Of a stretch of 63,006 nt of DNA, positions 1-23,908 are shown piece after piece. How positions within the stretch are numbered: position 1 is the stretch's first letter; every line of letters begins with the position of its first letter. Where the stretch lies: positions 1 to 63,006 of IMG/VR virus record IMGVR_UViG_3300037840_000064; one strand, given 5' to 3'. Origin of the DNA: a virus. Taxonomy: Duplodnaviria > Caudoviricetes. Below the pieces are notes generated by a model. It was not told the DNA's origin. It worked only from the letters and a program-made list of their open reading frames with translations, and ran no database searches. A program made the position numbers and the translations under genes.

Positions 1-52
1 TGATTCTTAGATTGTGCTAGACCCTGACTCCGATGGAGGGTTGCGTCAATTG

Positions 53-295
53 TTATTGTTTCGGCTCATCCTTGGGCTTCTCGGCAATCTGCTTTTGCAA
101 GTCAGCTATCGTTTTTTGCGCCTGTGCCAGTTGTGCCTCTGCCGCCGCCGCCTCATCCAAGGCGCGGTTACGTTGCGCTTGTAGAGCATTAAGCGCCTGC
201 TGTAAGAATGCTGGATCGGCACCTTGCGGGATCGGCTGCTGGGCGAGCGCCGAAGCGGCAAGCAGTGTGAGCATCATTGCGATTATGAGTTGCAT
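53..295 (-). CDS. Small signal-peptide coiled-coil protein downstream of tail fibre genes (possible fibre chaperone or spanin-like protein)
   Basis: MQLIIAMMLTLLAASALA|QQ leader, then heptad-like Ala/Gln/Leu helix; overlaps the stop of the upstream gene. Confidence 0.6.
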   Translation of the reverse strand: MQLIIAMMLTLLAASALAQQPIPQGADPAFLQQALNALQAQRNRALDEAAAAEAQLAQAQKTIADLQKQIAEKPKDEPKQ

Positions 296-1584
296 GTTCC
301 ACCCGTGAGAACGCCGAGCGTGAAAATCAAAGTTTTTGCTTGGTTGACGGTACAGGTCTGCGTCAAGCCCGGCGACAATCCCGCCTGAAATCCTGTACCC
401 ACAATGATGCCGGCACCGCCGTCCGTGGCGATATTTGCATTACCGACCGATAATCCACCGCTCGCCTGAAATCGAAACTTCTCTGTCACGGTTGGCGAGC
501 CGCCGCCAGTCACCGCTGTAAATATGGAGCAATAAGTTCCAAATGCAGTCGTGCTCCAATTTTCAGCCGCCCAACAGTTTATGCGAGCCTTGCTTGTCTC
601 AACTGCCGAGGACGATCCCGCTCCGCTGAAATTAATCCGGCCAATCTCGTCCCCGCTTACCAGCGGAGTAGGACTAGCCTGCGTGCCGTCGTAGCGGAGA
701 AAAGTATTAACGCCAAAAGAGCCAAAAGTTTGTACAGCATGACCCGCAGCGGTAGCATCCAAACCAAATATATTAACGCCCTTGCTTATGCTGGCAAGAG
801 TTAATGCCGTTGGCGTTACTGCATTCTGGTTAATCAGAAACGCGCCAGGTGCAGCATCAAGCCCACTTTGGGGAGTGTCATTGGCATAAGTGCCAAGGTA
901 AAGTGCGCCGTCGTTGAATAGGGTTAGTTGAGGGACTTGCGTAGTGGTTCCCGCCAAAGTCACCTTCATTTCCAGGCGCGTACATTCTGACGAAGTACTC
1001 CAATTGCAATCCGCATAAACCTGATAGCTACCCCGAGCCTCTATCCAGCCGGTAGTGCTGCTGCCGGTTCCGCAAAGCGCTTGATTGCAGCCGCCGCCGC
1101 CGAAGGATACAAGAGTGTCGTTAGCCAAGATTGCGGTCGGCGCTCCCAACGTCCCATTAGCGTGCGCCCCAGTAAACGCCGGAGAATTTCCAGTGCCTGC
1201 GGTATTTGTATTTGCGAGATAGACACTAATTCTCGCGCCGCCCCCGTCTGCCCCCGCCAAGATCAAAACATTGTCGGTTTGAGATATCGGCATAACGGGA
1301 GCAAAACTGATTTTTGGAATAACCGTGCTTGGAACCGAAAAACTGATGCCGCTATCGGTCAACCCCGTTCCCGTGGCGTTGTACCACGGCAAATCTTTCG
1401 GAGTTCCAAGGGTTCCGCCATTGATCGCATTGCAAGTGTACTGCGTTGATGCCGCGCGATTATCGCAAGTCGCGGCAGGCGCAGTCGGCACGATGCAATT
1501 CGGATTCGACGGCCCGCACCCCTGCGCCGCCGCCGGCAGCGCCGAGACAATCAGGAGCGCAAGCGCAAGTAGAATCTTCTTCAT
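283..1584 (-). CDS. Tail fibre/receptor-binding protein with Sec-type signal peptide
   Basis: Start moved to MKKILLALALL (TGATG overlap with upstream stop); Gly/Thr/Ser-rich internally repeated beta-type sequence; located after the main fibre gene. Confidence 0.65.
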   Translation of the reverse strand: MKKILLALALLIVSALPAAAQGCGPSNPNCIVPTAPAATCDNRAASTQYTCNAINGGTLGTPKDLPWYNATGTGLTDSGISFSVPSTVIPKISFAPVMPISQTDNVLILAGADGGGARISVYLANTNTAGTGNSPAFTGAHANGTLGAPTAILANDTLVSFGGGGCNQALCGTGSSTTGWIEARGSYQVYADCNWSTSSECTRLEMKVTLAGTTTQVPQLTLFNDGALYLGTYANDTPQSGLDAAPGAFLINQNAVTPTALTLASISKGVNIFGLDATAAGHAVQTFGSFGVNTFLRYDGTQASPTPLVSGDEIGRINFSGAGSSSAVETSKARINCWAAENWSTTAFGTYCSIFTAVTGGGSPTVTEKFRFQASGGLSVGNANIATDGGAGIIVGTGFQAGLSPGLTQTCTVNQAKTLIFTLGVLTGGTCNS

Positions 1585-1913
1585 CAGACAAATTCCAGAA
1601 TAGTGAGATTGCAGTTTCCGCTCGCGATGGCCTGCCACGCGCAATTGATCTGAAAGTTTCCCTGCGCCATGATCGGCAGCGTCGCTCCGGGGAATAAGGG
1701 AATGCCTTGATTTACGGCAATCGCGCTCCCGGCCGGCGCAAGATAGATGGTCTGCGTCGCACTCGGATTTCCAAACGTAATGCCGCGGCGCTGTGCGTTC
1801 GTCCCGATGACGCTCGCAGTAAGCGCCGTCGTCAGAGCAACCGACGTAAACACCGGACTGGCAATCGGGATTATCTGGTTTTGTTGGATCAGCGGTTCGG
1901 GCATGACGTTCAT
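1584..1913 (-). CDS. Hypothetical small virion-associated beta protein
   Basis: 109-aa ORF between two fibre genes, coupled to the downstream gene. Confidence 0.6.
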   Translation of the reverse strand: MNVMPEPLIQQNQIIPIASPVFTSVALTTALTASVIGTNAQRRGITFGNPSATQTIYLAPAGSAIAVNQGIPLFPGATLPIMAQGNFQINCAWQAIASGNCNLTILEFV

Positions 1914-1965
1914 CCGACTTTCGTTAGGAAAACTCTGTTGTTGTTTGCAGGCTTAAACGCACACA

Positions 1966-3906
1966 TCAACCCATAATTTCCGTCAGCCTCATCGTACCTA
2001 TACCGAAAGTGCCAGAACCAACGTTATTATTGCCATATACAGTGTACGCCTGGCTCGAAGAAACCCCTGGTGCATCGAGAACATCGAATACGCAAGGTGC
2101 CGATACAACACCGGCGCTGTTATTGATACCCACCGCCTGCGGCTCGCCGATAGCAGTCGATGTTCCCCGTCGAACCTGCGCACTTACTTGTGAAACGCTT
2201 GTCCCACTCACACCCGCCGCAGCAACACCGATTGCATTGATCAAAATAAGGTTTGCTGCACTGGTCGGTATAATGCTTGATGTAATGGTCGTAGCGGCCG
2301 CCGTTCCAGTGAGGCTGGTAGCACTGGCCGTCGCAAAGAAAACCGTCTGCACCGGGTCACCGGGTTTTTTGCACGAGGCCGGCGCCAAGCAAAATTGCAG
2401 CGTCGTCGGGGCGGACGCCCATGTCCCTGCCGTTCCCAAGCCCGAAGCATAGTCTGCGTAGCCGAGAATAATCACACTGTCGTTGCTGGTATTGGCCGAC
2501 GTATAAAGAACACCCGCCGTTCCTGATCCAGCGGTTATTCCCGTGCCGCTTTTCTGGATCGTCTCCCAGGCCGTGCACGGAAAGATCGCCGTCGCAGTTG
2601 AACATTTTGCAACCCCCAAAATCGGCGTGCCGCCGTTGTATGCGGCAAATATCCAGATTCGGAACGGGACATTGCTGCTCGACGTTCCGAGCGTCGCACC
2701 GGATGGAATCGTGATACCCAAAGCGCCTTGCGGTATGGCCCAAAGCGGATCGCCGTTCGCCAAGGTGGTATCCCGGAAGCGCAGCGGACCTCCTGAATAG
2801 GTGATAGTCAGTGCGCTCGCACTAGCAACCGCCGCGAGGCTTCCATTGACCGGACCATGTACGTCAAGCCACCACGTCCCCGACGACAAGGCGTTGGTGC
2901 TGATCCACACCCAAGAACCGGATGGAATCGTAATCGAGGTTCCCGACCCAACACCGGGAAAATTATCGTTGGCGTTCGGCGTAATCGTGCAGATGCCAGA
3001 GATCGCGTAAATCCAGAAACCGAATCCGGCCTGCAACGTATTGGCGCGAGGCAGCGTATAGGTGATTGGTCCCGTGCAAATCCTCTGATTCAACTGAAAC
3101 GCGGACGTAACGCTCTGGCTTGTGGAATCCGCAGTCGCAACGAACGTCTGCCGAAGTGTTCCCGCCCCATCATCAGCCAGACCATAGGAACCAACATTCT
3201 CCGTCGCCGCACTGCCCAAACCCAAGTCTGTCCGAGCCGCTGCAATCGTCGGCGCATTAACCACCGGCTGCATCGCCGACGAGACCGTTCCCGCAGGCAG
3301 CGTCGAAATCGCAACCGGAACACATCCCGTCGCATCAAATCCGAGCGCCTGGTTCGCTCGCTGTGCGGCAGCGGGTAACGGCGCGAGACTCCCACAACTA
3401 TCCGAAACCGGAATTGCAATCCCTCGCCCAAATAGCGCGTTCAACTGCTGAATCTGCATCGACAGAAGATCAAGCGCCGCTTCAACCGCAGTCGGGAATG
3501 CTTGCCCCTGATTCGAGCTTACGGTTTGCAGATAGGGCAGCGTCCGCGCGATGGTGATCGTCGTTCCAGACGCGATAGGGGAACCAACGAGAGGGTATGT
3601 GACCGAGCCGCCGAGGCCCCAGATTGCTCCCGGCAGCGGTGCGGTAAGCGTGAGCGTGTATTGCGTGTTCGGCGTAAGCGTCGTCTGGTTGCCGTTCGCG
3701 TCCGTGTAGATCACAGTAATGTCGTTGGAGGCGACGCCGATAAACGGGAACGTGAAATTCGTAATCGAGCCATTGCCGCCGATCACCACGGACGATTGCG
3801 CACTCGTAACTGTCGCGCGCACGTAACCGAGCCACGCCAAGTCGGCAATCTCGCCCAGGACAATAAGGCCGATGAACGCGAGCAGGAGGCGTGCGGCTTT
3901 TTTCAT
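1966..3906 (-). CDS. Tail fibre protein with T7 gp17-like N-terminal attachment domain, preceded by a signal peptide
   Basis: TVTS..GNGSITNFTFPF..ITVIYTD..TITIARTLPYLQ..VEAALDLLSMQIQQL is the podovirus fibre N-terminal pattern; AARTDLGLGSAAT fibre motif. Confidence 0.85.
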   Translation of the reverse strand: MKKAARLLLAFIGLIVLGEIADLAWLGYVRATVTSAQSSVVIGGNGSITNFTFPFIGVASNDITVIYTDANGNQTTLTPNTQYTLTLTAPLPGAIWGLGGSVTYPLVGSPIASGTTITIARTLPYLQTVSSNQGQAFPTAVEAALDLLSMQIQQLNALFGRGIAIPVSDSCGSLAPLPAAAQRANQALGFDATGCVPVAISTLPAGTVSSAMQPVVNAPTIAAARTDLGLGSAATENVGSYGLADDGAGTLRQTFVATADSTSQSVTSAFQLNQRICTGPITYTLPRANTLQAGFGFWIYAISGICTITPNANDNFPGVGSGTSITIPSGSWVWISTNALSSGTWWLDVHGPVNGSLAAVASASALTITYSGGPLRFRDTTLANGDPLWAIPQGALGITIPSGATLGTSSSNVPFRIWIFAAYNGGTPILGVAKCSTATAIFPCTAWETIQKSGTGITAGSGTAGVLYTSANTSNDSVIILGYADYASGLGTAGTWASAPTTLQFCLAPASCKKPGDPVQTVFFATASATSLTGTAAATTITSSIIPTSAANLILINAIGVAAAGVSGTSVSQVSAQVRRGTSTAIGEPQAVGINNSAGVVSAPCVFDVLDAPGVSSSQAYTVYGNNNVGSGTFGIGTMRLTEIMG

Positions 3907-4070
3907 TCTTTGCGATCGCTTTCAGATTTCATGCGATGGTGAGCAAGCCACCCGTGCGGGTGAGGTTCGTTCGGCAGGAAAGGCGCTTTCTCCTTGCGGC
4001 GCGGCCTTACCTTCGCTCGCTGCTTCTGCGGCGCATGGACTGGCGTAATTGGCGGGCGAATATCGGCCAC
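3903..4070 (-). CDS. 55-aa basic hypothetical protein (below ORF-track cutoff)
   Basis: GTG start overlaps the upstream TAG and its TGA overlaps the fibre ATG (MADIRPPITPVHAPQKQRAKVRPRRKEK...). Confidence 0.5.
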   Translation of the reverse strand: MADIRPPITPVHAPQKQRAKVRPRRKEKAPFLPNEPHPHGWLAHHRMKSESDRKE

Positions 4071-7000
4071 TAGTGGGCAACCGTGCTTTGCAAGATCGCG
4101 TGCTTGGCGTCCAATGCCTGTTTCATGATCTCTGGATATTGCATCAAGATCACGGTTCGCGCCATATCCCTTGAGCCGTCCACAGCCGTTTTCAACTGTT
4201 CTTGCCGGATTTGCTGCGGGATAAGATTGAAGCCCGGATTCGACACCATGGCATTGACTCGCATTTTGGCGACGCGACCGGCGATTCGGGTGAAGTCATC
4301 GTATTGCTGATCGGTCAAAGTCACGCCGCGAATCTTCCTCTCCGGCCTAGCGGGATAGTATTCGGCCTTCTGTAGCGCGATTGTTGCCGGATCGTTTACC
4401 GCAGGCGACCACGACATCATCGACCCGCCGCGCATCGGTTCCCCCCATAGGTCGCGGACAGGGAAAAGCTGCTCGCTCATGCCCGGAATATGGGCGCGTA
4501 AGGCATCCATTTCCGAGCGCACGGAACGCCATACCGGATCGGTCATGGACGCGATTTGGCGAAGGCCGATGGAGAACGGCAGAAAATCCATCGACATATT
4601 GCGCAGGTACTTCATGCCGCTGCGGTCCCAATTGCGCGCTGCATCAATAAACGAGGAAAGCCCGCGCATCCAGGTTTCGTCGGCAACAACCTCCGAGAAT
4701 CCGAACAGGAGTGCGGCAGCGCCTTGCGCCAGACCCTTCTCGCTCATCGTATGACCGATTTCGACCATATCGGCGACGCCGGCAACGAGAGGACCAAGTG
4801 CGCTCAGATATTTCCGATAGGGGATATACTCGCCGCCAATCTTGAGGCTGTACGGCTTCCACCCCGTCATTTCCATCACTTCGCGCTGCTTCGGATCGGA
4901 AGGACCGCCCCCCGTCATGATGCCTTGCATGGTGAGGCCCATCACGCTCAATCCGAGCCCGGTCCCCACCATGATCTGCCCATATTGCCGCTGCATCGCG
5001 ACCGGCCCGTTACGACCCAACAGATTATTGCGCGCGTCTGAGGACAAGAACGCCAAAGGCGTGCGCTCTACAAAGCCCTCGCGGAGAATGTTCGCACCTA
5101 TCTGCACGAACGGCATAACGAGTTTCAAGGCGATGTGGCTATTGACCCACTTCTGAAAATGGTACTGCCCCGAATCGAAGGTCGGACGCTTCATCAGCAC
5201 CATTTCGAGCGCGGTATTATGTGCTTCTGCCATCGCCGAGTCCGGCGGCTTGCTCACAAACTCGGCCATGTGCTGATTGAATTCATCGGTGCCGGGCTCG
5301 AAGTCTTCCTTTATCGCGTCGCGAAAGGCCATCGCGGAGATTTCGGATTCGTAGTTCATGCCGTAGTGCATGGTGTGGATCGCGGCGACCGAGCGCGACG
5401 GCGTTTCCAGAACGTAGCCTACCTTGCCGGGAATCTGTTGCGGACGGTAGGCGATTTCCGAATTGAAAAGATCGACGCCGGACGGATCGCCCTTCATCAC
5501 AGATACGCCGGTTTTCAGCGCACTATATGATGGCATTATTCCTTCGCGAGCGCCGTAGAGCATTCCGTAAAGTCGCGGCACAATCTCGCCTGCAACGATT
5601 CGATCTTCCGGCTTGATCGCCCCGACTGCCGAAAGCATCCGCCCCGCAAGAGCAGACGCAGCGGTTTCAGGAACGGCCCGCCATAACTGCAAAACCTGAT
5701 TGCCGATGGAGTATCCAACGTGAGTTAGTGGTCCCGAAATTAGATTGTTGATGACGTAGCTGATAACACCGTCGCGGACCTTCTGCCCGAGCAGTTTTTG
5801 CGAGTCCTGAATCCCTCGCGCGACTTGTGCCGGTGTGCTTGCAGCACGGCCTAGCGTCATTTCCTGCTGTAGTTGAAAAAGTGTCTTGCCCGTCGCATCC
5901 TTCAAAACCGCAGCGAGTTCTTCCGCGTTCTGTGTCGCGCCCTTCATCGTGCGGAACGCGCGAAGCCCACGGCCCATTTCCGCCGTAATGCCGGACAATG
6001 TTTCGTGTGCCATCAAAAATCTTTGTCGCGCTTCCGCGTAGGCGACTTCATCCGTGCCTTGCATGGTCCGGCTGACTTCGGCGGCAAGTTTGGTAAACGT
6101 ATCGCGCATTAACCAGATACGCGCGGCAAGCGGCACACCATCCTCGACGGACATCTGCCGCAGGCGGTCCATGTTGTTTGCGACGATCCGCGGATCGACG
6201 CCCATCGCGTCCGCCAAATCCATGATGGACTGATCGGACACGACGCCTCGCGTGGCGGCGTCTAACTGTGCAGCATTTTCGTGGTAGAGCGTTCGGATTG
6301 CGTCGTTGACGGCGGCGGGAGTATCGAGGTTTTCCAGCCGGATATTTCCGACCTTATCCATCTTCGCCGCCGGCAGTGTGTCCAGCGGAACGTGAGGCCC
6401 GATGGGAAGCGGCTCTATGGTTCCTGCGCTGCCTTCTCGTGTTCGTAGCCCAGCGCCTTGCGGTACAATGTTGCCGCCGCCCTGTGGCTGCGTGCCGAGT
6501 TCCGCGCTGCCAGCGCCGCCTGGACCGATAGTGTCGGGTCTGCCGCGATCTTCTCCCAATGAGATTGGTTCGCTTGCGCTAGTTCCAATTTTCTCTGCAC
6601 TTCCTCGATGCTCATCCGCTATGTCCTTGGGCAGTTCCGCTCTGGCCCTGGCATCCTCGTTACCGATACGATCCGCCGCCCGCTCCGCTTCGTGCGGCTC
6701 GGTCAGAACGGCGTCCGACTCATGAATATCCTGCAAATCGGGCCGTTTGGCAATCTCGGGCGCAATCACGGTCCTTTGAGGCTGTTCGGCAAGCATCCGG
6801 TCGAAAACACCCCGAATATCGTCACTGATCGGAGCGCCTAAGCCCCTGATGGTCTGGTAGATATTCATCATCCATTGCTTGACCTTGGCGAATACGCCGG
6901 CAAGCTGCGGAGAGGGGGCTATGCCTTCCCGAAGATATTGCTCAAATCCCCTGGCGAACTTCTCATGGGCCTTGGTTGCCTTGATCTTGGCCGCCCGTGA

Positions 7001-10000
7001 GGCATCGGCGCCTAGGGTTAAGTCCTGTGGCCCTTTGAGTCCGAGCCAATCCATGACGGTCTGTGCGTCTGCCTTAAGGTCTGCGGGCGCGGCTTCGTGG
7101 GCGGCGTCACGGACAAGTTCCGCGAGGTATTGGTGGCCGGATTCGTGAAAGAACGTCGAGGCGTTGGCCTCGGCGGTTAGCCTCATTAGAGGGCGGACGT
7201 TCTCCATGCCGATGTAGTCGTGGCCGGGGACGGCGTTGGGGTTTAGGACGATGCCGCCGCGCGCTTGTTGGAATAGTTCTTGCTGGTCTTTTTCATCCCC
7301 GAACAGCCCCACGTCCATAGGCTTCTGTTCGGCCTTTGGCTTCAACGGCTGATCGGCCGCGCGTTGCGCACGTTCGGCGTCACTGATTCTCTCGGCGCCT
7401 GGAATCTGTTGCTGACCTTCGGCCTCGCGCTCCGCGATCAAGTCGCGTTCGCGTTTCCGCTGGTAGAACTCCGTCCAAGTCTTTTCTCGATAGCCTTCGC
7501 GATCTGTTCGTGCGCCAGCGCCAGGTGTGGCTTCTTCGCCTTTAGCAGTTGCTTCGCGCGCTTCCTGTGCTGCTCCGGTGTCATCAGGTACATCCCATCC
7601 GGGGATATACTCGGCGCGTTCGGGAGCGTTTTCGGTTTCGACGGCATGATCGTCTGCCTCCATCACGGCCCGTTCGTGGGCGATGTCGGGTTCCAGTCTT
7701 TGTCTGTCCATCAGTTCGCGCATTCTCGCTGAGATGGATGGTTCGATTTCGTTGGGTTTTATTCCAACTTCTTGCAGGTAATCGGTTATGCGAGAATCAA
7801 GTTCTGCTTGTGCGGCTCTGTGCTGTTCCAGTTCGGCGGCGTCGGGCACACGCTCGCGGGCTTCCTGCGGTTCAACACCTTGGCGATAAACTTTGGTGCC
7901 GCGTTCCTCGCGGTCCATCGCCTGCAACAGCGTGTCGAGATTCGACGTGGCCTCGCCGGCACTCACACCGCTTTGGCCGTGGTCCTGAATATAACCGGCC
8001 TCGACCGCCGCCTCGCGAGCGCGATCTAGCTCCATGCCGTCTTTGCGAATCAGCGGCCCAAATCCGGGAATCCATTTCTGGTCCTTACCGAAGATCGTTC
8101 GCACGTCGCCGATGTTCTTGTCGTCGGCTTTTATTCCACCCCGATCTGCGATGAATTGAAGGAGCGACCAGCGTTCTTGCGGCACGGCGCGCGGGCCGCG
8201 TGCGGCTTTGGGGCCGACGTGGGTTGTGGTGATTTCGGATTCGGGGATGGCCTCGGCTACCGGCGTCGGCGCAATTGCTGGCGCTCCTGTGGGCGCTGGC
8301 GCTGTAGGTCCGCCCGGCCCGCGAATCTGCGCACCCTCGGCCTTGTAAAGTTCCTCCGCGCCGCCACGCGCCCCGCCAAGCCTTGCGGCTCTTGCCTCGT
8401 ACCGCGCCGCGACAAGCTGCCCCGCCGCCTGTGCTTCCGTTTCCGGCCGCCCCGCTGCGATCAACTGGCGCTTTACGTCGTTGACGATGAAATCCCGCTG
8501 TGCCTCGATTGGCTTGATAACCTGATCTGTCGGAACGCTCGGCTTGTTCTCCGACTTGTGGTGCCCAATCGCATCTTCCGGATTGATGTGCATCTGTCCG
8601 GGCGGCGGATTCGTATTAGGCTCATGCTCGATATGATCGAGATAGCCGTCCATTTCGTCGGTATAGGCTTTCCAGTTCACGCCATCGGCTTCGACTGCGG
8701 CGCGCTCTGCGGGTGTTGCAACTTTGGTATGAGCATCGTCGTAGCTCATGCCCCGCTTCATCGCTTCGGCTTCGACGGTTTCGTGAATAGCAAGATACTT
8801 GTGCAGGTTTGCCGGATTGCCGTCTTTGTCTTTGAGAGTCGGCGAGAATTCCGGGATGCTGTGATCAACGACAACCGTTCCGTCTGCGGTCGAATTTGCG
8901 CCTGAGAGAACGGTATGCGTGGCGTCGATCTTCGCTGGCACTCCCGTCACTTCCGGCGGCGGAAACATTCCCCACGACTGCGATACAGGTGGTGCCACTG
9001 TTGCCGCGTTCGTACTTGCCGCCGCTTCCTGATACGCCGCCTTGACCTGTGGCGAGAGTTCGTCGAGTTCTTTATTCACGCCATCGAGATAAGCCTTCAC
9101 GCCCGGTTCGGACTGCCCTTGCGCCTCTCGTTCGGCAAGCCACTTTTGCAAACCGTCTTGCTGCTGCTTCAACGTGTCGTAGCGCGCAAAGACATCGGGC
9201 GCGGCTTGGCGTGCTGCTGTGTGAATGTCGGGGGTGATATTCTCAGGACTCGGCATGACTGCGGCAGGCGGCGGCGTCATCGGCGACGGCTGTTCTGATT
9301 TTCCCGCTACCGGCGGCGGCGCGGTCTCAATCTTGACCGGCTCGCCCTTTGGCACTTCGACTGGCGCCGTACCAGCCCAACCACGTTCACCGGCACCAAT
9401 CACACGCATCTGCCGCGCGGTCTCAATCAGTCCCGGCGAATTACGATAGGCTTCGCTAAAACCAAGACCCGGTATCGGCATTCCACTTACAGGACCGTGC
9501 AGACCTGTCGGGAAGGCTTCCGGCAAAGCCGCAATTTCGCGGGCAATATTTGGTGCCCCGACTTCCTCACCTAATTGCTGGACAACGGCCTGACCGCCGC
9601 GAAACATTCCCGGCAAACCACGCCTGATTACGGCATCAAGAGCGACGGCGGCGGGACGTAACAGAACCTCGTTCGCGGTCTTAACGAGGCTCGCTTGCCC
9701 TTTCTGATAATCGTTGAAAATACCAATCTTTTTCAGATACTCGGTACTTTCATCGGACAATCCCAACCGATCCGTGCCCCAGCCTTGCTCGAATCCCTGC
9801 CCGAACGAGTCCAATATCCGCGCAACCGGGCTCACCGTTTTGTCGCCGAAAATTAGATCATTGACCGGCGAATGAGAGATACCAGCGGCCTTCGCCTTCC
9901 TGTCCGCCTCGACGGAAGCCGGAAACAACGAATCAACATCCTGCGCCCCGGACTTCTCCGGGAACAAAGCATCCACATCCTGCGGGGCAGGCGCGGCGGT

Positions 10001-10030
10001 TGGCTGTTGTGCTGGAACGTCCTGCATCAC
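4070..10030 (-). CDS. Giant internal virion/DNA ejection (polyvalent-type) protein, 1986 aa
   Basis: Size and position between lysozyme-bearing ejection protein and tail fibre; ASTFFHESGH...HEKFARGFEQYLREG zincin-like block typical of phage polyvalent proteins; C-terminal RDLWGEP-type region. Confidence 0.8.
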   Translation of the reverse strand: MMQDVPAQQPTAAPAPQDVDALFPEKSGAQDVDSLFPASVEADRKAKAAGISHSPVNDLIFGDKTVSPVARILDSFGQGFEQGWGTDRLGLSDESTEYLKKIGIFNDYQKGQASLVKTANEVLLRPAAVALDAVIRRGLPGMFRGGQAVVQQLGEEVGAPNIAREIAALPEAFPTGLHGPVSGMPIPGLGFSEAYRNSPGLIETARQMRVIGAGERGWAGTAPVEVPKGEPVKIETAPPPVAGKSEQPSPMTPPPAAVMPSPENITPDIHTAARQAAPDVFARYDTLKQQQDGLQKWLAEREAQGQSEPGVKAYLDGVNKELDELSPQVKAAYQEAAASTNAATVAPPVSQSWGMFPPPEVTGVPAKIDATHTVLSGANSTADGTVVVDHSIPEFSPTLKDKDGNPANLHKYLAIHETVEAEAMKRGMSYDDAHTKVATPAERAAVEADGVNWKAYTDEMDGYLDHIEHEPNTNPPPGQMHINPEDAIGHHKSENKPSVPTDQVIKPIEAQRDFIVNDVKRQLIAAGRPETEAQAAGQLVAARYEARAARLGGARGGAEELYKAEGAQIRGPGGPTAPAPTGAPAIAPTPVAEAIPESEITTTHVGPKAARGPRAVPQERWSLLQFIADRGGIKADDKNIGDVRTIFGKDQKWIPGFGPLIRKDGMELDRAREAAVEAGYIQDHGQSGVSAGEATSNLDTLLQAMDREERGTKVYRQGVEPQEARERVPDAAELEQHRAAQAELDSRITDYLQEVGIKPNEIEPSISARMRELMDRQRLEPDIAHERAVMEADDHAVETENAPERAEYIPGWDVPDDTGAAQEAREATAKGEEATPGAGARTDREGYREKTWTEFYQRKRERDLIAEREAEGQQQIPGAERISDAERAQRAADQPLKPKAEQKPMDVGLFGDEKDQQELFQQARGGIVLNPNAVPGHDYIGMENVRPLMRLTAEANASTFFHESGHQYLAELVRDAAHEAAPADLKADAQTVMDWLGLKGPQDLTLGADASRAAKIKATKAHEKFARGFEQYLREGIAPSPQLAGVFAKVKQWMMNIYQTIRGLGAPISDDIRGVFDRMLAEQPQRTVIAPEIAKRPDLQDIHESDAVLTEPHEAERAADRIGNEDARARAELPKDIADEHRGSAEKIGTSASEPISLGEDRGRPDTIGPGGAGSAELGTQPQGGGNIVPQGAGLRTREGSAGTIEPLPIGPHVPLDTLPAAKMDKVGNIRLENLDTPAAVNDAIRTLYHENAAQLDAATRGVVSDQSIMDLADAMGVDPRIVANNMDRLRQMSVEDGVPLAARIWLMRDTFTKLAAEVSRTMQGTDEVAYAEARQRFLMAHETLSGITAEMGRGLRAFRTMKGATQNAEELAAVLKDATGKTLFQLQQEMTLGRAASTPAQVARGIQDSQKLLGQKVRDGVISYVINNLISGPLTHVGYSIGNQVLQLWRAVPETAASALAGRMLSAVGAIKPEDRIVAGEIVPRLYGMLYGAREGIMPSYSALKTGVSVMKGDPSGVDLFNSEIAYRPQQIPGKVGYVLETPSRSVAAIHTMHYGMNYESEISAMAFRDAIKEDFEPGTDEFNQHMAEFVSKPPDSAMAEAHNTALEMVLMKRPTFDSGQYHFQKWVNSHIALKLVMPFVQIGANILREGFVERTPLAFLSSDARNNLLGRNGPVAMQRQYGQIMVGTGLGLSVMGLTMQGIMTGGGPSDPKQREVMEMTGWKPYSLKIGGEYIPYRKYLSALGPLVAGVADMVEIGHTMSEKGLAQGAAALLFGFSEVVADETWMRGLSSFIDAARNWDRSGMKYLRNMSMDFLPFSIGLRQIASMTDPVWRSVRSEMDALRAHIPGMSEQLFPVRDLWGEPMRGGSMMSWSPAVNDPATIALQKAEYYPARPERKIRGVTLTDQQYDDFTRIAGRVAKMRVNAMVSNPGFNLIPQQIRQEQLKTAVDGSRDMARTVILMQYPEIMKQALDAKHAILQSTVAH

Positions 10031-12708: not shown

Positions 12709-12714
12709 GATCGA

Positions 12715-13239
12715 TCAAGCCGTGCTTGCATATTTTGCGTAAGACCCGCCGACACTCGATGCCGAGCTTAGGAAACTCCCCAGCGCCGACCACGGCGCCG
12801 CGCTGCTCGCCTGGCTCGATTCCGATTGCAGCAATTCCGATTCCGCCGTGTCGCCGGTTGCAGCGACCGTATCGGCGTAAGCCTTCTTTGCCGCGTTGGA
12901 ACGGATGGTCAAAGCATCGAGCATCCCGAGTTCGCTTTCGGCCGCGCGCACCTTCGGGGCGGACCCCTTATTGACATCGATACCGGAAGCGCCTTGGCTC
13001 GCCAGCGTCGATCCGACCGCGGCGCGGGTCTTGAGTCCCTGATTCACCGCTCCAATCTCGCCGGACTGCGTATCCATCGCGGCATTGCTCAACGCAATCT
13101 TGGCGTTGTTCGCCGCAACTTGAGCCTGATAGGACGCATTCTTGGATGAAGCCTCCATCGAGCTATAGGAGCCGACTGCGTTAAGACCCGCACCGGCAAG
13201 TCCCGCAGCCAATGAAATCGGAAGGATTGCCGCGCCCAT
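12715..13239 (-). CDS. Small internal virion (ejection) protein
   Basis: Ala/Gly/Ser-rich with hydrophobic ends and GASGIDVNKGS motif; canonical position. Confidence 0.7.
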   Translation of the reverse strand: MGAAILPISLAAGLAGAGLNAVGSYSSMEASSKNASYQAQVAANNAKIALSNAAMDTQSGEIGAVNQGLKTRAAVGSTLASQGASGIDVNKGSAPKVRAAESELGMLDALTIRSNAAKKAYADTVAATGDTAESELLQSESSQASSAAPWSALGSFLSSASSVGGSYAKYASTA

Positions 13240-13244
13240 TTAAG

Positions 13245-13301
13245 CCCCTATGGCCGTATGAATCTCTCGGAACGGTTGAGAGATTAGGTAGCCAAGCTAA
13301 C
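13245..13301 (-). repeat. Solo copy of the 57-bp cassette-end repeat (upstream-type end)
   Basis: Minus strand GTTAGCTTGGCTACC...TACGGCCATAGGGG, same length and conserved blocks as six other copies. Confidence 0.85.
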
Positions 13302-13309
13302 CAAACATT

Positions 13310-13867
13310 CTAAGCATCGAAGCCAACATGAAACCTACAATACAGCGCACCGTTAAGTCCCACAGGCTCGGCTTTTTCCACAGCAAAGCCGAGAATCCGA
13401 AGAAACTTGATCGCCTGCGCATAGTCGGCAGCCACGAACGACTCAAGTCGCGGTCTTAACTTCCTCATGGCTGCCAACTCTGCTTTCGCTACCCTGACAA
13501 ACGAGAACGGCACAGACTCGATAGCAGCCGATGTATGCAACCACGGCACGCCAAGATCGGACAAAGGACTCACACCAGCGCGCAATCCTATTCCCAATCC
13601 CCAAATCGCCGCAACCTTGTCAGCCACCAACGCCGTCTTGCACATGATCGAATTACGATACGCCCGCCACAGTGCTTTCTTGACGCCAAATCCGAGATTG
13701 AGAATTTCCAATCGGTCCTGTTCGCGCAAGGACTCCGCGAGCGCATAGATGTGCGCGATCTCGGTCGGCTGGATAGTGTACGCTCTCGGCACGGATTGAT
13801 CGTCAAACGGTATCGCGCGGTGACCGTAGCCGTTCATCCCTATGGCCTGGTCACGCATTGGGGACAT
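13310..13867 (-). CDS. T7 gp13-like / GNAT-fold virion assembly protein
   Basis: LREQDRLEI..GVPWLHTS..AIKFLRILGF pattern; located after the nozzle gene. Confidence 0.7.
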   Translation of the reverse strand: MSPMRDQAIGMNGYGHRAIPFDDQSVPRAYTIQPTEIAHIYALAESLREQDRLEILNLGFGVKKALWRAYRNSIMCKTALVADKVAAIWGLGIGLRAGVSPLSDLGVPWLHTSAAIESVPFSFVRVAKAELAAMRKLRPRLESFVAADYAQAIKFLRILGFAVEKAEPVGLNGALYCRFHVGFDA

Positions 13868-17303: not shown

Positions 17304-18098
17304 TTAAACAAACGCGCCTCCGGGAAACCCCAAACTCGACCAGCCGTAATAGCACATGGCCGTATCCCAGCCGAACCCGTAGCCGGTTATTCCCCGTACC
17401 GCCATCCAATCAGGCACATGGTCGATAGATGTAATCCCCTCATTGCCATCCGAAATTCGCGCTGACTGCACAACCGATGTTGCAATCTCGATTTGCTCCT
17501 TGAGGACTTGCGCATTGCGAGCGAGAGGATTGACCAGCCATGCGCCGAGAGTCGCAATCGCCGCGTTCTGAAAATGAGCATCCCACAGATCGACATTGGT
17601 CACGCGGCACGTATAGACAATCGCTGCAAATTCCAGATCGGTCAGGATGACTTTTATCTGATTGCCCGCAGCATCGGTATCGTTTGCTACAATAAATTTG
17701 TAGCCGGGATTACCCCACGGCCACAGCGGCGTCGTCTGGACGCCAGCCGGAAACGGATTGCCGCTTCCGGTCAACGGCTGATTGCAGAGCAAATATCGCG
17801 CGAGCAAACAATCTGGCGGGTACTGATAGGCATACTGCCAGGGATAGGGAGGAATTGGCAGCGTCGTGCCGTTGGGATTTTCAGGAGTGCCTTGCGCGGC
17901 TTTGAGGACGATACCGTTTTGTTGTTTTCTTGTGAAATTCCAATGTGCTGAACGATGCAGGGCATCAATCCGAATCTGGTATTGGCGCGCAACGACTATC
18001 GCGTTCGGCGGCGGGAGCGGGGGTTGTAGTGACGTAATGGAAAATCGCGCGCCGATGTTGTCCAAACTGATGTTGGCAATATCGACATCCGAAGTCAT
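17304..18098 (-). CDS. Tail adaptor (tail tubular protein A, T7 gp11-like)
   Basis: DIANISLDNIG..HWNFTRK..WQYAYQYPPDCL..WDAHF motifs; precedes the nozzle gene. Confidence 0.85.
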   Translation of the reverse strand: MTSDVDIANISLDNIGARFSITSLQPPLPPPNAIVVARQYQIRIDALHRSAHWNFTRKQQNGIVLKAAQGTPENPNGTTLPIPPYPWQYAYQYPPDCLLARYLLCNQPLTGSGNPFPAGVQTTPLWPWGNPGYKFIVANDTDAAGNQIKVILTDLEFAAIVYTCRVTNVDLWDAHFQNAAIATLGAWLVNPLARNAQVLKEQIEIATSVVQSARISDGNEGITSIDHVPDWMAVRGITGYGFGWDTAMCYYGWSSLGFPGGAFV

Positions 18099-18133
18099 CC
18101 CCCGCCTCCCGCCGTCCAGTCATAACCGCAGCA

Positions 18134-18805: not shown

Positions 18806-18862
18806 TTGATTCCTCCTGGAATCGGATTGGGATTTAGATTAACGCGGGGCGCTTCCTTTGGT

Positions 18863-19258: not shown

Positions 19259-19274
19259 CTGATCTTCCTTTCCG

Positions 19275-19406: not shown

Positions 19407-19413
19407 CTGGATT

Positions 19414-19698: not shown

Positions 19699-19707
19699 TT
19701 TCTTCTC

Positions 19708-19920: not shown

Positions 19921-19922
19921 TT

Positions 19923-20425: not shown

Positions 20426-21265
20426 TCATGGATGATCCGTTGATTGGTTGGCCGTGGTCATATTGTTAAGCGTCCAATTATTGCCCTCGCCAGAACTATC
20501 GGCGCCGAGCGTCGCGGTAGACGTGCCATTGGAGAACGATAGGAAAAAATCGAACGTGCCAGTATAGGTGCCGCTGTACGTCTTGGGAACGCCCGGCGTC
20601 CCGGTGATGAAGCTCGTCGGCGTGAGTTGCTGGCCGTCAATGTAATAGAACATCGCCATCTTCATGTTGGCGAAGTTTGCGGGCACCTGATTGGAGCCGA
20701 TGCGATAGGTTGCGGCAAAATTGTTCGACAGATTTGCGTTTTGTGCCGGGTAGGTTGCCGTGCCGAACGCCGTAATCAGCGTGCCGTCGACATAGATTTG
20801 AACGCGATTAGCTGCCGTAGCCTGCGTCGTGTCAAAGGCTACGTGCAGATTGTGCCATGTCGTTGTGTCGGTGAAAGTCGCGGTGGTTTGCAGATTAACG
20901 ACAGTCGTGCTGGCCGTGCTGCCTAGAACTTGGACGATACCCGCGCCGAGCAAGCGAAGCGTCAATTCATTGGTTGCGGTCCCGTCGCCGGAGTAATAAA
21001 AGACCTGAGTAGCGCCGGTAGCCGTGTTTTTCCACCACAGATTGACCGTGGACTTCTGCTGGTTAATCCCGACCTTGCCGGTAGCGGAGAGACTCTGCGA
21101 CGACGCTGACGTGAAGATCAGAGAATTTGTCGCCGATGAAACAATTCCTGAGGGCAATATACAAAATCCCGCCGAACACCCGTTGAACTGCGCTTTAGAT
21201 GTATTAAGCGCGAGCAGCGAGAGTGCCACCGTCAGCCAAATGACAAGAGCGACGCGCCATGTCAT
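20426..21265 (-). CDS. LamG/concanavalin-like domain protein with signal peptide
   Basis: TVNLWWK..WHNLHVAFDTTQATAANRVQIYVDG..YYIDGQQLTPTSF..DSSGEGNNWT motifs. Confidence 0.8.
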   Translation of the reverse strand: MTWRVALVIWLTVALSLLALNTSKAQFNGCSAGFCILPSGIVSSATNSLIFTSASSQSLSATGKVGINQQKSTVNLWWKNTATGATQVFYYSGDGTATNELTLRLLGAGIVQVLGSTASTTVVNLQTTATFTDTTTWHNLHVAFDTTQATAANRVQIYVDGTLITAFGTATYPAQNANLSNNFAATYRIGSNQVPANFANMKMAMFYYIDGQQLTPTSFITGTPGVPKTYSGTYTGTFDFFLSFSNGTSTATLGADSSGEGNNWTLNNMTTANQSTDHP

Positions 21266-21777
21266 GTAAGGTCATTTCCGATCACATAGAAATCGCACGT
21301 CGCAGCGCCTCCGGTTCCTGTCGTCAATGAAAGGTAAACCGTATTGATGGTCAGCCGGGTAGTTGCAATATTCGCGGCTAGCGTTAGTCCCAAAACAACT
21401 GCTGCACCTGTCAGCGCCGTGTAGGCTTGAGCAGCCGCAACGAGTGCCGTGCCGCCTTTGCTGGTCGCAGGATAAACGCCGCCCGCAGCCAAGGTGAAGG
21501 TGCCAGAACAATTCGTTACGACGATGGATGTTGGCACCCACGCCGTGATCGAGGCCGGGATGATGCAGGATTGATCCGTCGTGATGTTGAAATTCGCCGC
21601 GCGGATCGAGCAGAGAACGCGATTGACCCCGATATGAAGATTCGTGACTTGGCACGACGTATTGAGGTCGCCAGTGCAAGGCGAAACCGAACCGCCGCCG
21701 CCGAACTGAGCATTGCTCGGAGAAATCAGCGACGATGAAAGAAGGAGCGCAGCGAGCGTCCTTTTTATGCGGCCCAT
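21262..21777 (-). CDS. Signal-peptide, Cys-paired beta protein (putative head decoration/fibre)
   Basis: MGRIKRTLAALLLSSSLISPSNA|Q; six Cys; located in the virion operon. Confidence 0.65.
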   Translation of the reverse strand: MGRIKRTLAALLLSSSLISPSNAQFGGGGSVSPCTGDLNTSCQVTNLHIGVNRVLCSIRAANFNITTDQSCIIPASITAWVPTSIVVTNCSGTFTLAAGGVYPATSKGGTALVAAAQAYTALTGAAVVLGLTLAANIATTRLTINTVYLSLTTGTGGAATCDFYVIGNDLT

Positions 21778-21779
21778 GA

Positions 21780-22595
21780 CTACCACCACGTGCACGTAAA
21801 CTTGTGGCTAGTCGTTGCCGCGATCACGGACAGTGCGTGATTGAGGCCGAAGCCCGGTGGCGCCGTGAACGAGCCGAAGCCAGCAAACGTCGTCGCCGTT
21901 GCGGCCGGCAGTGGATAGCTGCCCGCGCCGGATGCTGCCGCCGTTGTGGTGAATGAAATCCATAGCGGCTCGGTCGCGTCGATGTTGGCGATGGTGAATC
22001 CGTGCAACGTCGTCTGCGCCGTGAAGGCGTTCTGCGCGCCGCCGCCGGACGTTATCGTACCGGAGCAATCGGTCGCGGTGACATTCGAGGGGCCGGCATT
22101 TTGCACTATGCCGTTCGTCGTTCCCGGCGTCGTTTGGTCTATACCTACCTTGCCGATGATCGCCGATCCAGCAACAACACCGACCGTTGCGCCAGTCTGT
22201 TGCGCTGGTGCCGCGCCTTGTGCCGCGAGAATAGCCGCGAGCGTCGTCTGTGTTGCGGCGCCGGTCGGAAGCACGCTCGCCTTGACGTTCACCCATTGGC
22301 CGTTTGTCGTATCGCCGAGCAGCGGCTGAAAATTTCCCGATCCGTCCTTGAAACCGACCGGCGTGCCGTTGGCGCCGATTGGGCCAGCGAACGCGACCGA
22401 AAGACCACCGCCGCCCCCACCGCCAGTTTGGCAAAGGTTGCCGTTCACATCGATGGTGAAAGGTCCAGGATTTCCCGCCTTAAACGCCGTTACGACCGTT
22501 CCGCACGTCGCAACCACAAGCCCGGTTGTATTTTGCGCCCACCCTGGTACTCCCGCGAGCAACAACCACGCAAGAGCAAAGATCAATCTGCGCAT
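21780..22595 (-). CDS. Signal-peptide putative head fibre/decoration protein
   Basis: MRRLIFALAWLLLAGVPGWA|Q; AGSAIIGKVGIDQTTPGTTN fibre-like motif. Confidence 0.65.
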   Translation of the reverse strand: MRRLIFALAWLLLAGVPGWAQNTTGLVVATCGTVVTAFKAGNPGPFTIDVNGNLCQTGGGGGGGLSVAFAGPIGANGTPVGFKDGSGNFQPLLGDTTNGQWVNVKASVLPTGAATQTTLAAILAAQGAAPAQQTGATVGVVAGSAIIGKVGIDQTTPGTTNGIVQNAGPSNVTATDCSGTITSGGGAQNAFTAQTTLHGFTIANIDATEPLWISFTTTAAASGAGSYPLPAATATTFAGFGSFTAPPGFGLNHALSVIAATTSHKFTCTWW

Positions 22596-22624
22596 GGCGC
22601 CATCGCTCCAATGCTTGTCCCAGA

Positions 22625-23908
22625 TCAGAACCGCGCACTGACTTTTATACGGCCCGTGGTCGAAGAACCATTGAGAAAGGCCGCCCCGCCTGCGGTGGCC
22701 GTCACGGTATCGCCGATGGTTACGATACTCGGCGTGCTCGCGCTGTTACAGGTCAGCGTCCCTACCGCCGTATTGGTCCCTGCAAGGTTCCATTTCAGGC
22801 CGCCTGCGGTAAATGCACAGGTCGGCACGGCGCGCATGGTCACCGGCAAATGAAGAACACCCACTTCTACGTTGGTGGCAGAGACCATCCCCGCAGCCAG
22901 GTAGGCCCCGTTGGTTTCGGGAATGAGATAGTAGTAAGCCTCTTGCAGCGCCATTTCTTGGGACGCGGGACGCCGCGCAAACGACCTTGCATTTCCTGCG
23001 TTCGCCGCGAGCAACGCTCCGCTCGTTCCGGCAGCGGTCGTTAGCGACGGGTTGCGGACCAGTTGCGCGCCGGTAAACTCGAACCAGTCGGTCGCACCGC
23101 CATTCCCAACAGGGGTATAGCAGATCACGACTGCAAGCTCGGTCGCCGTTGCCGGGATCGGCGCAACAACGGTATAGCGCGTCCACGTCGTCGTGATCGG
23201 GACCGCTATATTGCTTGCCGCATTGGCTTGGCCGGCCCAGGTCGAAGAACCACCACCACCGCCGTTGAAGGCGAATGCGAGCTTGGAAATGCCTTCGTCA
23301 GTCCCGGTACCATAGACGATGGAGACATTCAGGGCAGAACCAGCAGCGGAGAATCCCGCGCCGGCCTTCACATGAAAGTCAAACTCGGCAGTCTGCGACT
23401 GAAATTTCGTGCTATCGGCGCTCGATATCTCCTGTAGGACACAGGCCGGAATCGTCCCGCCGGTCCCGGACGCTTTGTTGATTCGCAGTGAGGCTGCGTA
23501 GGAAACCGGAATATCAGCCGCGCCAGTCTGCTGGGTTCCCGTGATAACCGTCGTCGAGCCGCCCCATGCCGCCCATTGATCGGCGACATAGGTAATTGTG
23601 GTGGAGACCGAACCCACCGACGTTCCGTCCTGGAACAGATTCGTTCCAAAATCCCCGCCGATCAAAGCATTCTCGGCATTGCCGCCGGCAATCGACTGGC
23701 CGTAGGCACTCAGCGTCGCGCTTGTTGCAAAGCACGACACCGTGCAGGGGTAATTCAAGGAGACTTGCTCAGTGCCATTGAGCGTAAAAAGCTGCTGCAT
23801 CCCCTGGCCGATGGCGCGTTGCACCGGCCCGACAGTTCCGAGCGCCGCCAGAACAATCCCGGTAAGCGCGCAGAGCACCACAACACGCAGGCGAGAGAAG
23901 ATTTTCAT
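22625..23908 (-). CDS. Signal-peptide putative carbohydrate-binding head fibre protein
   Basis: Hydrophobic leader; NALIGGDF..YVADQW..TTTWTRYT..GAQL..PVTMRAVPT fibre/CBM-like pattern. Confidence 0.7.
   Translation of the reverse strand: MKIFSRLRVVVLCALTGIVLAALGTVGPVQRAIGQGMQQLFTLNGTEQVSLNYPCTVSCFATSATLSAYGQSIAGGNAENALIGGDFGTNLFQDGTSVGSVSTTITYVADQWAAWGGSTTVITGTQQTGAADIPVSYAASLRINKASGTGGTIPACVLQEISSADSTKFQSQTAEFDFHVKAGAGFSAAGSALNVSIVYGTGTDEGISKLAFAFNGGGGGSSTWAGQANAASNIAVPITTTWTRYTVVAPIPATATELAVVICYTPVGNGGATDWFEFTGAQLVRNPSLTTAAGTSGALLAANAGNARSFARRPASQEMALQEAYYYLIPETNGAYLAAGMVSATNVEVGVLHLPVTMRAVPTCAFTAGGLKWNLAGTNTAVGTLTCNSASTPSIVTIGDTVTATAGGAAFLNGSSTTGRIKVSARF

Follow-up and report, generated by a model that had tools for sequence, protein, structure and literature searches.

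Probable Sec-type signal peptides on two tail fibres of a podovirus and a possible two-compartment route to the virion

Introduction

By the textbook account, tailed-phage assembly is wholly cytoplasmic. The locus described here raises the question of why two tail-fibre genes in the structural operon of such a phage should begin with what look like signal peptides for export, and what this would mean for the way in which the particle is built. The stretch of DNA analysed, referred to below as the window, comprises the entire length (63006 bases, linear) of an IMG/VR virus record rated 100% complete; it is a complete podovirus genome whose capsid resembles that of phiV10-type phages. Its podovirus structural operon lies on the minus strand and closes with the gene for a first fibre (fibre 1), a gene of 109 amino acids (aa), the gene for a second fibre (fibre 2) and an open reading frame (ORF) of 80 aa. 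An initial annotation had read the starts of both fibres and of the 80-aa protein as cleavable Sec-type signal peptides and had proposed that these proteins pass through the periplasm on their way to the virion, or else serve a second function at the envelope of the cell. The three N-termini are as quoted there, and all three genes lie on the minus strand.

A leader in front of the anchor domain of fibre 1

The fibre 1 gene (1966..3906, minus strand) encodes a protein of 646 aa with 9 Cys, consisting of a leader, an anchor domain at about residues 32-200, a conserved middle to about residue 350 and a variable distal part. Its N-terminus reads MKKAARLLLAFIGLIVLGEIADLAWLGYVRA|TVTS. The leader occupies codons 1-31 (3814..3906, minus strand) and comprises the n-region MKKAAR, the core LLLAFIGLIVLG, the conserved segment EIADLAWLGYVRA and a presumed signal-peptidase site VRA|T, the core being strongly hydrophobic (mean Kyte-Doolittle about 3.2 over 9-11 residues). 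Fibre 1 matches the PHROG tail families phrog_1640, 13893, 1171, 6518 and 5662 at E-values (E) from 6e-18 (phrog_1640) to 1e-8, and these matches begin at fibre 1 residues 37-43, equivalent to profile positions 5-13. Matches found with tblastn in cultured phages mostly start at residue 32 or at residues 43-44, with two at 25 and 29, and residue 32 corresponds to residue 2 of gp18 of Burkholderia phage BcepC6B. Because the profiles and most cultured-phage homologues start only beyond it, the segment of about 31 residues is a true N-terminal extension, and the initial annotation was right to place the leader just before the usual fibre start. Its description of the protein as T7-gp17-like was not confirmed, as no family in Pfam (E 0.01 or better) or NCBIfam was matched and no T7 chain appeared among the PDB profile matches at E 1 or better; a distant kinship with T7 gp17 is conceivable. 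Among solved structures its closest relative is the Dpo31/Dpo36 tailspike (residues 1-128, E 1e-24), whose chain begins exactly at the junction between the fibre 1 leader and domain.

With this N-terminal homology over about 130-170 aa, fibre 1 belongs among the podovirus tail fibres and tailspikes that share the anchor domain. A hidden Markov model (HMM) of the domain had a single match in the six frames of the window, fibre 1 itself; the genome therefore has no leaderless copy.

A family search with residues 1-200 of fibre 1 examined 4182 candidates, of which 134 proteins scored E 0.001 or better. The best 120 of the 134 were used, anchored on an HMM of residues 32-200, and the removal of 2 shortened proteins left 118 homologues, of which 48 have a hydrophobic leader and 70 do not. 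The leaders are 19-33 residues long, apart from two longer ones that probably reflect upstream start calls. Alanine stands at position -1 in all 48 leader-bearing forms, and position -3 is Ala in 32, Val in 13 and Ser in 3. In these 48 forms the leader ends at the exact position of the start codon in the 70 leaderless forms, and the invariant residues of the anchor domain are common to both. The six closest clusters are 89-93% identical to fibre 1 over residues 1-200. On a quick maximum-likelihood tree of the anchor domain the leader state changes at least 11 times. Gaining or losing the signal would therefore be easy in evolution, as expected if attachment is late and independent of the compartment.

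The leader of the window belongs to a long subtype. Fifteen homologues have leaders of 30-31 residues, and 14 of these share the subtype, the other (P0136) being unrelated in sequence. The second half of the leader follows the pattern [GA]E-x-x-[DN][LF]-x-[WY]L-x-x-[VAS][RY]A in 13 of the 14, and the subtype ends with the same -3/-1 pattern as the rest of the fibre 1 family.

Fibre 2 joins a variable leader to an invariant module and exchangeable tips

The fibre 2 gene (283..1584, minus strand) encodes 433 aa with 12 Cys, comprising a signal peptide, an N-module QGCGPxNPNCIVPTAPxxxxxNxAAST and a tail-fibre-like, beta-rich C-terminal part. Its start codon, the ATG at 1584, overlaps the stop codon of the 109-aa gene (ATGA). 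The signal peptide covers codons 1-20 (1525..1584, minus strand), and the N-terminus MKKILLALALLIVSALPAAA|QGCGP consists of MKK, a core of 13 residues and AAA|Q; the cut is expected before Q21.

With residues 1-75 as query, 47 clusters were retrieved out of 1187 candidates, and every one of the 47 has a leader varying in length and sequence, behind which stand QGCG(P)xNPxC and a PTAP...AAST.F segment. In the alignment, which has 46 rows (P0035, with a called start far upstream, was excluded), position +1 is Gln in 46/46, -1 is Ala in 44/46 and -3 is Ala in 37/46. Residues Q21, G22, C23, G24, N27, C30, T34 and A45 are invariant and 14 more of positions 20-47 are at least 90% conserved; among positions 1-19 only M1 reaches 90%, compared with 22 of positions 20-47. 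Conservation sets in exactly at A20/Q21, the presumed cleavage site. The conservation of the leaders among homologues, a point raised in the initial annotation, is thus borne out in both families by the Ala at -1 (48/48 for fibre 1, 44/46 for fibre 2).

Behind the module the family diverges, with total lengths of 280-753 aa and C-terminal parts that include pectate-lyase-like (PF12708), Peptidase_S74 (carried by P0014) and PF27114 domains. Three different C-terminal parts follow the same N-module in the window (433 aa) and in its two close relatives, L004 (747 aa) and L005 (586 aa). To judge from these alignments, this is the pattern of a putatively cleaved signal peptide, a conserved docking module and exchangeable receptor-binding tips. 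A tblastn search of cultured phages with the N-module (75 aa) gave no match, for which reason no cultured model phage was found. A scan of viral contigs with the whole of fibre 2 gave no relative, the family surfacing only through the protein search, and fibre 2 matched no family in Pfam or NCBIfam. A second version of the N-module, QN-x-x-CPT...C-AST-x-FV, also stands behind a signal peptide at L012, L015 and L016 and in P0185 and P0282; its Cys pair is placed unlike that of QGCGPxNPNC.

Searching the whole protein library with fibre 2 yielded 718 proteins at E 0.001 or better, most of them matched over residues about 245-430. An AlphaFold2 model built on an alignment that included these homologues has a mean predicted local distance difference test score (pLDDT) of 72.7, and an earlier model from another alignment (mean pLDDT 46) was set aside. 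The top Foldseek matches of the retained model are the L-shaped tail fibre of phage T5 (4UW7; E 1e-10, probability 1.0) and the Bdellovibrio fibres 8OML and 8ONF, with E from 2e-7 to 5e-6 for 8OML, 8ONF and 8OL4; the TM-scores of these matches are low, at 0.22-0.39 (0.27 and 0.39 for the T5 fibre). BFVD gave 128 matches at E 0.001 or better, with phage tail fibres on top. Among 53 aligned homologues, Peptidase_S74 was detected in 4, and Mtd_N, an endosialidase catalytic domain and collagen repeats in one each. A Pfam search of fibre 2 itself for the Peptidase_S74 chaperone domain gave no match. A complex prediction with three copies each of fibre 1 residues 195-350 and fibre 2 residues 21-80 scored 0.00 without controls and has no bearing on docking.

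Both leaders are translated and resemble Sec signal peptides

The two close relatives, whose fibre 1 is 73-74% identical to that of the window, keep both leaders. Compared with them, the 31 leader codons of fibre 1 comprise 11 identical ones, 14 with synonymous differences only and 6 replacements, of which 5 exchange one hydrophobic residue for another; in the 20 leader codons of fibre 2 the corresponding numbers are 6, 8 and 6. As the differences from the two relatives are mostly synonymous, both leaders are translated.

By our heuristic, which combines hydrophobicity with the -3/-1 residues, both fibres have the basic n-region, the core of about 10-15 residues and the small residues at -3 and -1 that are characteristic of Sec signal peptides cut by signal peptidase I, although 13 residues separate the core from the site in fibre 1. 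A variable leader followed by a conserved mature start is seen in fibre 2 and in the short-leader forms of fibre 1, and not in the second half of the leader in the window's subtype. Sec export and signal peptidase I cleavage are the simplest reading of the family-wide patterns for fibre 2, and on that basis fibre 2 is very probably processed in this way. The family pattern makes it likely that fibre 1, too, is exported by Sec. Cleavage at T32 in the window's subtype, argued by analogy with the short-leader forms, is favoured with less assurance.

Leader states are linked between the fibres, and leaders go with paired cysteines

Scans with the fibre 1 family alignment located 79 viral loci and 3 genome loci, and the anchor domain was present in 80 of 83 sources including the window. 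Once these had been restricted to loci with at least 2.5 kb downstream and exact duplicates had been removed, 15 leader-bearing and 34 leaderless loci remained. Downstream of fibre 1, a large fibre-like gene (at least 300 aa) with a signal is present at 15/15 of the former compared with 3/34 of the latter (Fisher p = 5e-10, uncorrected for kinship). Of the 15, 12 were called by the heuristic and L012, L010 and L015 by inspection, the second fibre of L015 having a QNIVCPT-type start. The leader states of the two fibres are linked. A more distant leader-bearing relative (L010, 9082-13703) has further signal-bearing genes of 182 and 219 aa after fibre 1, and its QGCGP-type fibre starts inside a longer open frame, so that automatic gene calls would miss the leader.

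The cysteines follow the leaders. Fibre 2 has 12 Cys at 23/30, 40/51, 166/171, 193/201, 337/352 and 411/431, as the initial annotation had counted them, and six consecutive pairs all within 20 residues arose in 763 of 200000 random placements. In the fibre 2 alignment C23 and C30 are both present in 46/46 rows, and C40/C51 are both present in 4, both absent in 42 and never single. The 9 Cys of fibre 1 form four local pairs plus one. Over the first 340 mature residues, fibre 1 homologues with a leader have a mean of 2.9 Cys (mostly 2 or 4) and those without a mean of 1.0 (mostly 0 or 1); C171/C195 is found as a pair in 19 leader forms and C277/C306 in 10, and neither pair in any leaderless form. 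A regular-expression classing (46 leader, 67 leaderless, 7 unclassed, superseded by the HMM-anchored 48/70) gave a median of 6.5 mature Cys with a leader compared with 3 without (Mann-Whitney p = 1e-6, ignoring relatedness) and even Cys counts in 83% of leader forms compared with 63% of leaderless ones. Leaders are thus associated with paired cysteines, and the Cys patterns would fit oxidative folding of the fibres. The internal virion proteins of 1986, 893 and 174 aa (within 4070-13239, minus strand) have 0 Cys.

A proposed route and its rivals

From these patterns we infer export, cleavage, disulfide formation, presence in the virion and late attachment, in the following order. Fibre 1, the single tail-anchoring fibre, and fibre 2, the swappable receptor-binding one, would be made as preproteins with Sec-type signal peptides and translocated across the inner membrane. 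Signal peptidase I would cut fibre 2 before Q21 and fibre 1 most likely before T32, after which the fibres would take up their fold, form trimers and acquire local disulfide bonds in the periplasm. Capsid, portal, adaptor, nozzle and internal virion proteins, which have no export signal, would be built into fibreless particles in the cytoplasm. The fibres would reach these particles only once holin lesions and lysis merge the compartments, with attachment as a spontaneous last step; because the tail on which it docks has no export signal, a fibre could meet its tail only when the inner membrane is breached. Fibre 1 is most likely still the fibre of the virion, since no other protein of the genome has the anchor domain and the mature form of fibre 1 is that of a canonical fibre. 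Addition of the T7 fibre and of the P22 tailspike is a spontaneous last step, and T7 particles without fibres, like P22 particles without tailspikes, can be made complete in vitro. This late addition, together with Bdellovibrio trimers that fold after export, makes the route feasible. Fibres waiting in the envelope may also bind or cut the receptor glycan.

Read from the sequences, the full two-compartment route, in which the fibres are exported, matured in the periplasm and joined to particles at lysis, has in our judgement about an even chance of being correct. The broader proposition, that a whole podovirus clade, probably infecting soil proteobacteria, builds its virions in two compartments and has switched the fibre route at least about ten times by gain or loss of a signal, is put forward more tentatively. 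If the route is real, assembly of the virion is tied to lysis in its final step, and Sec, signal peptidase I, the disulfide-bond machinery and periplasmic chaperones are unscreened phage dependency factors. Disulfide-rich fibres would become possible, which may matter for stability in soil, and the envelope of the infected cell would, ahead of lysis, contain proteins that bind or cut the receptor. Expression in the periplasm would be required for the products of such fibre genes to fold, and neither gene callers nor annotators should discard leaders of this type as miscalled starts.

Several observations weigh against this route. The fibre 1 leader is atypical in that its 12-residue core is followed by a 13-residue segment with two acidic residues before the site, and in the 15 proteins with leaders of 30-31 residues, leader residues 19-31 (given as 3814-3870) match the mature domain in conservation (identity 0.60 in both). 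It is because the second half is conserved in this way that a cut exactly at VRA|T in the window, likely by analogy, is uncertain; this leader could act as an anchor that stays uncut, or the cut could fall at another place, such as after G18. The signal-peptide calls themselves come from a crude heuristic of our own together with comparative evidence, and the raw Cys and linkage tests ignore relatedness. A kinship-controlled Cys test with 7 independent pairs was not significant (2.9 in the same direction compared with 0.3 opposite, median p 0.25); it is underpowered, and the direction holds. A leaderless fibre 1 is found beside a QGCG-type signal-bearing second fibre at L027 and L035 and beside another signal-bearing protein at L054. 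A common compartment for both fibres is therefore not required, and fibre 2 may act off the virion. By the heuristic, 64 of 142 new homologues of the fibre 2 C-terminal part (among 150 listed) are signal-bearing, so that some may be cellular and the fold alone is no proof of virion membership. Many exported proteins have this fold, and they need not all come from viruses; the signal-bearing homologues contain 1.18 Cys per 100 aa compared with 0.47 in the others. The 109-aa protein, encoded between the two fibres, has no leader. That the host is a diderm is suggested only by homologue names and by the outer-membrane-protein-like gene described below. Finally, joining at lysis has to beat dilution.

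Four other explanations were weighed, of which the main rival is a role at the cell envelope, alone or in addition to one on the virion. Exported fibre-like proteins would then act as adhesins or as glycan-binding or glycan-cutting proteins that mask or destroy the receptor, giving superinfection exclusion or keeping progeny off debris, in the manner of the mosaic adhesive trimers (MATs) of Bdellovibrio. The Foldseek matches that place fibre 2 beside 8OML, 8ONF and 8OL4, signal-bearing cell-surface fibres, speak for such a role, as do the leaderless fibre 1 with a signal-bearing QGCG-type protein at L027 and L035, the frequency of signals among the C-terminal homologues (64/142) and the presence of exported accessory genes in the window, such as the outer-membrane-protein-like gene at 59825-60577. 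However, fibre 1 is the sole anchor-domain gene, so that a virion lacking it would have no recognisable fibre; the -3/-1 pattern puts the cut exactly at the canonical start of an anchor domain that is itself strongly conserved (89-93%); and the conserved N-part and swapped C-part of fibre 2 are typical of proteins docked on a conserved partner. As far as the available description of the MATs goes, their conserved N-domain (about 130 aa) has no visible counterpart here either. We regard an envelope role as possible, if rather unlikely. A second alternative accepts export and questions the cut, with the leader of the window's subtype serving as a signal anchor or releasable anchor that tethers fibre 1 in the periplasm until depolarisation or lysis, or being cut after G18 so that EIADLAWLGYVRA remains as an extension. 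The length of 31 residues suits this, since a single long helix containing E19 and D22 could span residues 7-29; so does the conservation of residues 19-31, which equals that of the mature domain (0.60) where the 30 short canonical leaders have an identity of 0.31 compared with 0.52 in theirs, and the first site that the heuristic accepts is VLG|E. Set against this, the subtype ends in [VAS]-[RY]-A before T like those 30 short leaders, and releasable anchors are weakly hydrophobic, unlike this strongly hydrophobic core. An anchor of this kind, or a cut after G18, appears unlikely; the conserved second half of the leader might also be a pro-segment.

Two further explanations would remove the signal peptides or change their type, and both are far less probable. 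If the leaders were annotation artefacts, translation would start downstream, for example at the GTG of fibre 1 codon 29, or long exported and short cytoplasmic forms would coexist. That GTG, three codons before the junction, is also present in L004, and Shine-Dalgarno-like motifs, which occur at 6 of 20 gene starts checked in the window and do not discriminate starts, leave the start calls weakly constrained. The codon is GTT in L005, however; ATG, GTG and TTG are all absent from -8 to +2 of the junction at 9 of 18 leader-bearing loci; and at the other 9 the start codons vary in position and all lack a Shine-Dalgarno-like motif. The leader codons are under in-frame purifying selection, and perfect -3/-1 residues in 48/48 are not expected of untranslated DNA. 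An internal start was rejected on these grounds (GTT in L005, the 9/18 loci, purifying selection), and true starts downstream of the leaders, the outcome that the initial annotation had set against its own reading, are very improbable. Fibre 2 might instead be a lipoprotein that signal peptidase II processes before Cys23 and that is attached through a lipid anchor; a Cys does lie close behind the leader, and the homologue P0040, named 'Lipoprotein' by a source, has a LASC motif within its longer leader. The lipobox consensus has Leu, Val or Ile at -3 and a small residue at -2. Here A-Q-G is invariant before Cys23 and the Gln at -2 misfits; Q21 and G22 are invariant like the mature protein, everything before them varies, and Cys23 is always partnered by Cys30 (46/46). 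The lipoprotein assignment was rejected because A-Q-G-C does not fit the lipobox, and we give it hardly any weight. With these alternatives set beside it, the proposal of export made in the initial annotation stands in that the leaders are translated and look Sec- and signal peptidase I-like across both families, with Cys patterns that would fit oxidative folding, and is weakened where it depends on the atypical leader of fibre 1.

Genome context and neighbouring genes

Upstream of the fibres the operon is that of a podovirus. It encodes, all on the minus strand, a portal (29520-31364, phrog_332), a major capsid protein (25257-26291, Pfam GP7, E 1e-90), a Gp10-like protein (18863-19258), a tail adaptor-like protein (17304-18098, phrog_394) and a nozzle-like protein (13851-17303, phrog_376), and four internal virion proteins (185, 174, 893 and 1986 aa) are encoded between the nozzle-like gene and fibre 1. 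The capsid protein is 38-40% identical to capsids of phiV10-type and related enterobacterial podophages (15 records listed), which we take to be epsilon15-like. The gene order runs on across the ends of the record: the gene 3' of fibre 2 in L004 and L005 corresponds to 62782-62976 in the window, where it is followed by an endolysin (phrog_181, E 6e-41) and then by small membrane proteins. A near-identity DNA search of window positions 1-20000 against cultured phages gave zero matches. The spacer upstream of fibre 1 (3907-4069, 163 bases) is largely kept in L004 and L005, with one 6-base indel, and a promoter and terminator scan of positions 1-4300 found no match exceeding shuffles.

The 109-aa gene between the fibres (1584..1913, minus strand) has homologues in the same position in L004 and L005. 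Its product has a conserved local Cys pair (91/101) and matches phrog_30212 (E 7e-5); its atlas matches are unnamed, mostly viral small-protein clusters, and it matched no family in Pfam or NCBIfam. The 80-aa ORF (53..295, minus strand) begins MQLIIAMMLTLLAASALA|QQ, with a hydrophobic N-terminus followed by an Ala/Gln-rich helical segment; there is no basic residue before the hydrophobic core, and no Cys. It has no homologue at that position in L004 or L005, an atlas search gave no reliable match (best 0.78), and a Pfam match to BTAD barely passes the cut-off and is probably compositional. It was also considered as an Rz-like i-spanin and rejected, the phrog_89 match being weak (E 0.0055) and the sole nested ORF of at least 50 aa having no lipobox-like start; it is, presumably, about half the usual length of such a protein. 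The 80-aa ORF is an accessory gene that nothing ties to the virion, and with neither a basic n-region nor a counterpart in the relatives the suggestion that it, too, is an exported virion appendage is weakened.

Four consecutive genes of 279, 177, 271 and 427 aa (20426..23908, minus strand), between the capsid and tail genes, encode proteins with hydrophobic or signal-like N-termini and probably belong to the same exported set as the fibres. The 279-aa protein matches phrog_27411 and phrog_19943 ('virion structural protein') and ConA-like lectin/SPRY 'virion structural proteins' of marine podophages, and at L063 homologues of three of the four genes lie directly downstream of a leader-bearing fibre 1. 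Searches of Pfam and NCBIfam with the four proteins matched no family.

Elsewhere in the genome, two small ORFs on the minus strand, 33073-33387 (104 aa) and 33384-33734 (116 aa), have twin-arginine-like leaders (..SSRRGFLFG.. and ..TRRKFFNWLFG..). They sit between 33735-34613 and 32089-32940, both of which match terminase large-subunit families, as if the terminase gene were split around them. The outer-membrane-protein-like gene (59825-60577, minus strand) begins with a canonical signal peptide, MRKLFGILGALALLSSTAAMA|AD, and is kept in the relatives (L004 12527-13411, L005 12877-13698); a Pfam search with it matched no family. It is probably a moron and hints at a diderm host, perhaps an alphaproteobacterium. 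The names of homologues point to Hyphomicrobiales (Pseudolabrys, Bradyrhizobium, with B. zhanjiangense among the sources, and Xanthobacteraceae) and, for other members, to Steroidobacteraceae.

Comparison with known systems

Fibre 1 residues 32-200 are homologous to the anchor-domain tail fibres and tailspikes of known phages, including BcepC6B gp18, the fibre of Pelagibacter phage HTVC010P and the Dpo31/Dpo36 tailspike, with 33-38% identity by tblastn for those named. As in BcepC6B, the fibre 1 gene follows those of the internal virion proteins and precedes the lysis genes. The known members listed have their Met directly at the domain, whereas fibre 1 of the window and 48 of the 118 metagenomic homologues have a leader in front and more Cys. 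For fibre 2, the best solved fold match of the model is the T5 L-shaped tail fibre (4UW7), with the low TM-scores given above; no Peptidase_S74 was detected in fibre 2, and T5 pb1 is not known to have a signal peptide.

Signal-bearing proteins and phage proteins that wait in the periplasm both have precedents. Lambda Lom, T5 Llp and Cor are signal-bearing moron proteins encoded in or beside the tail-fibre region and acting at the envelope; they are small outer-membrane proteins or lipoproteins unrelated to fibres, whereas here the fibres themselves are signal-bearing. Signal-anchor-release endolysins are exported by Sec before lysis and activated or released on depolarisation, and thus provide a precedent for waiting in the periplasm. 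They are enzymes with an uncleaved, weakly hydrophobic anchor, whereas the fibre sites here look like signal peptidase I sites.

A literature search at the level of abstracts found no account of tailed phages whose tail fibres carry Sec signal peptides. The closest parallel in print that we found is the MAT family of Bdellovibrio bacteriovorus, tail-fibre-like trimers with a signal peptide that are located at the cell surface and have a conserved, beta-rich N-domain of about 130 aa after the signal peptide; one of them has been produced as fibres behind a PelB leader (PMC10769870). As described there, the MATs have a signal peptide, a conserved N-part and exchangeable C-terminal tips like fibre 2, and they indicate that such fibres can mature after export; the Foldseek matches to 8OML and 8ONF add a similarity of fold, at low TM-scores. 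Compared by description only, their N-domain of about 130 aa differs from the fibre 2 N-module, which is about 30 residues long and has a Cys loop. By that same account they are cellular adhesins of a predator, whereas the genes described here lie in a phage structural operon in which fibre 1 has a phage anchor domain. If the fibres do mature in the periplasm, phage fibres would be linked with the exported fibre adhesins of predatory bacteria.

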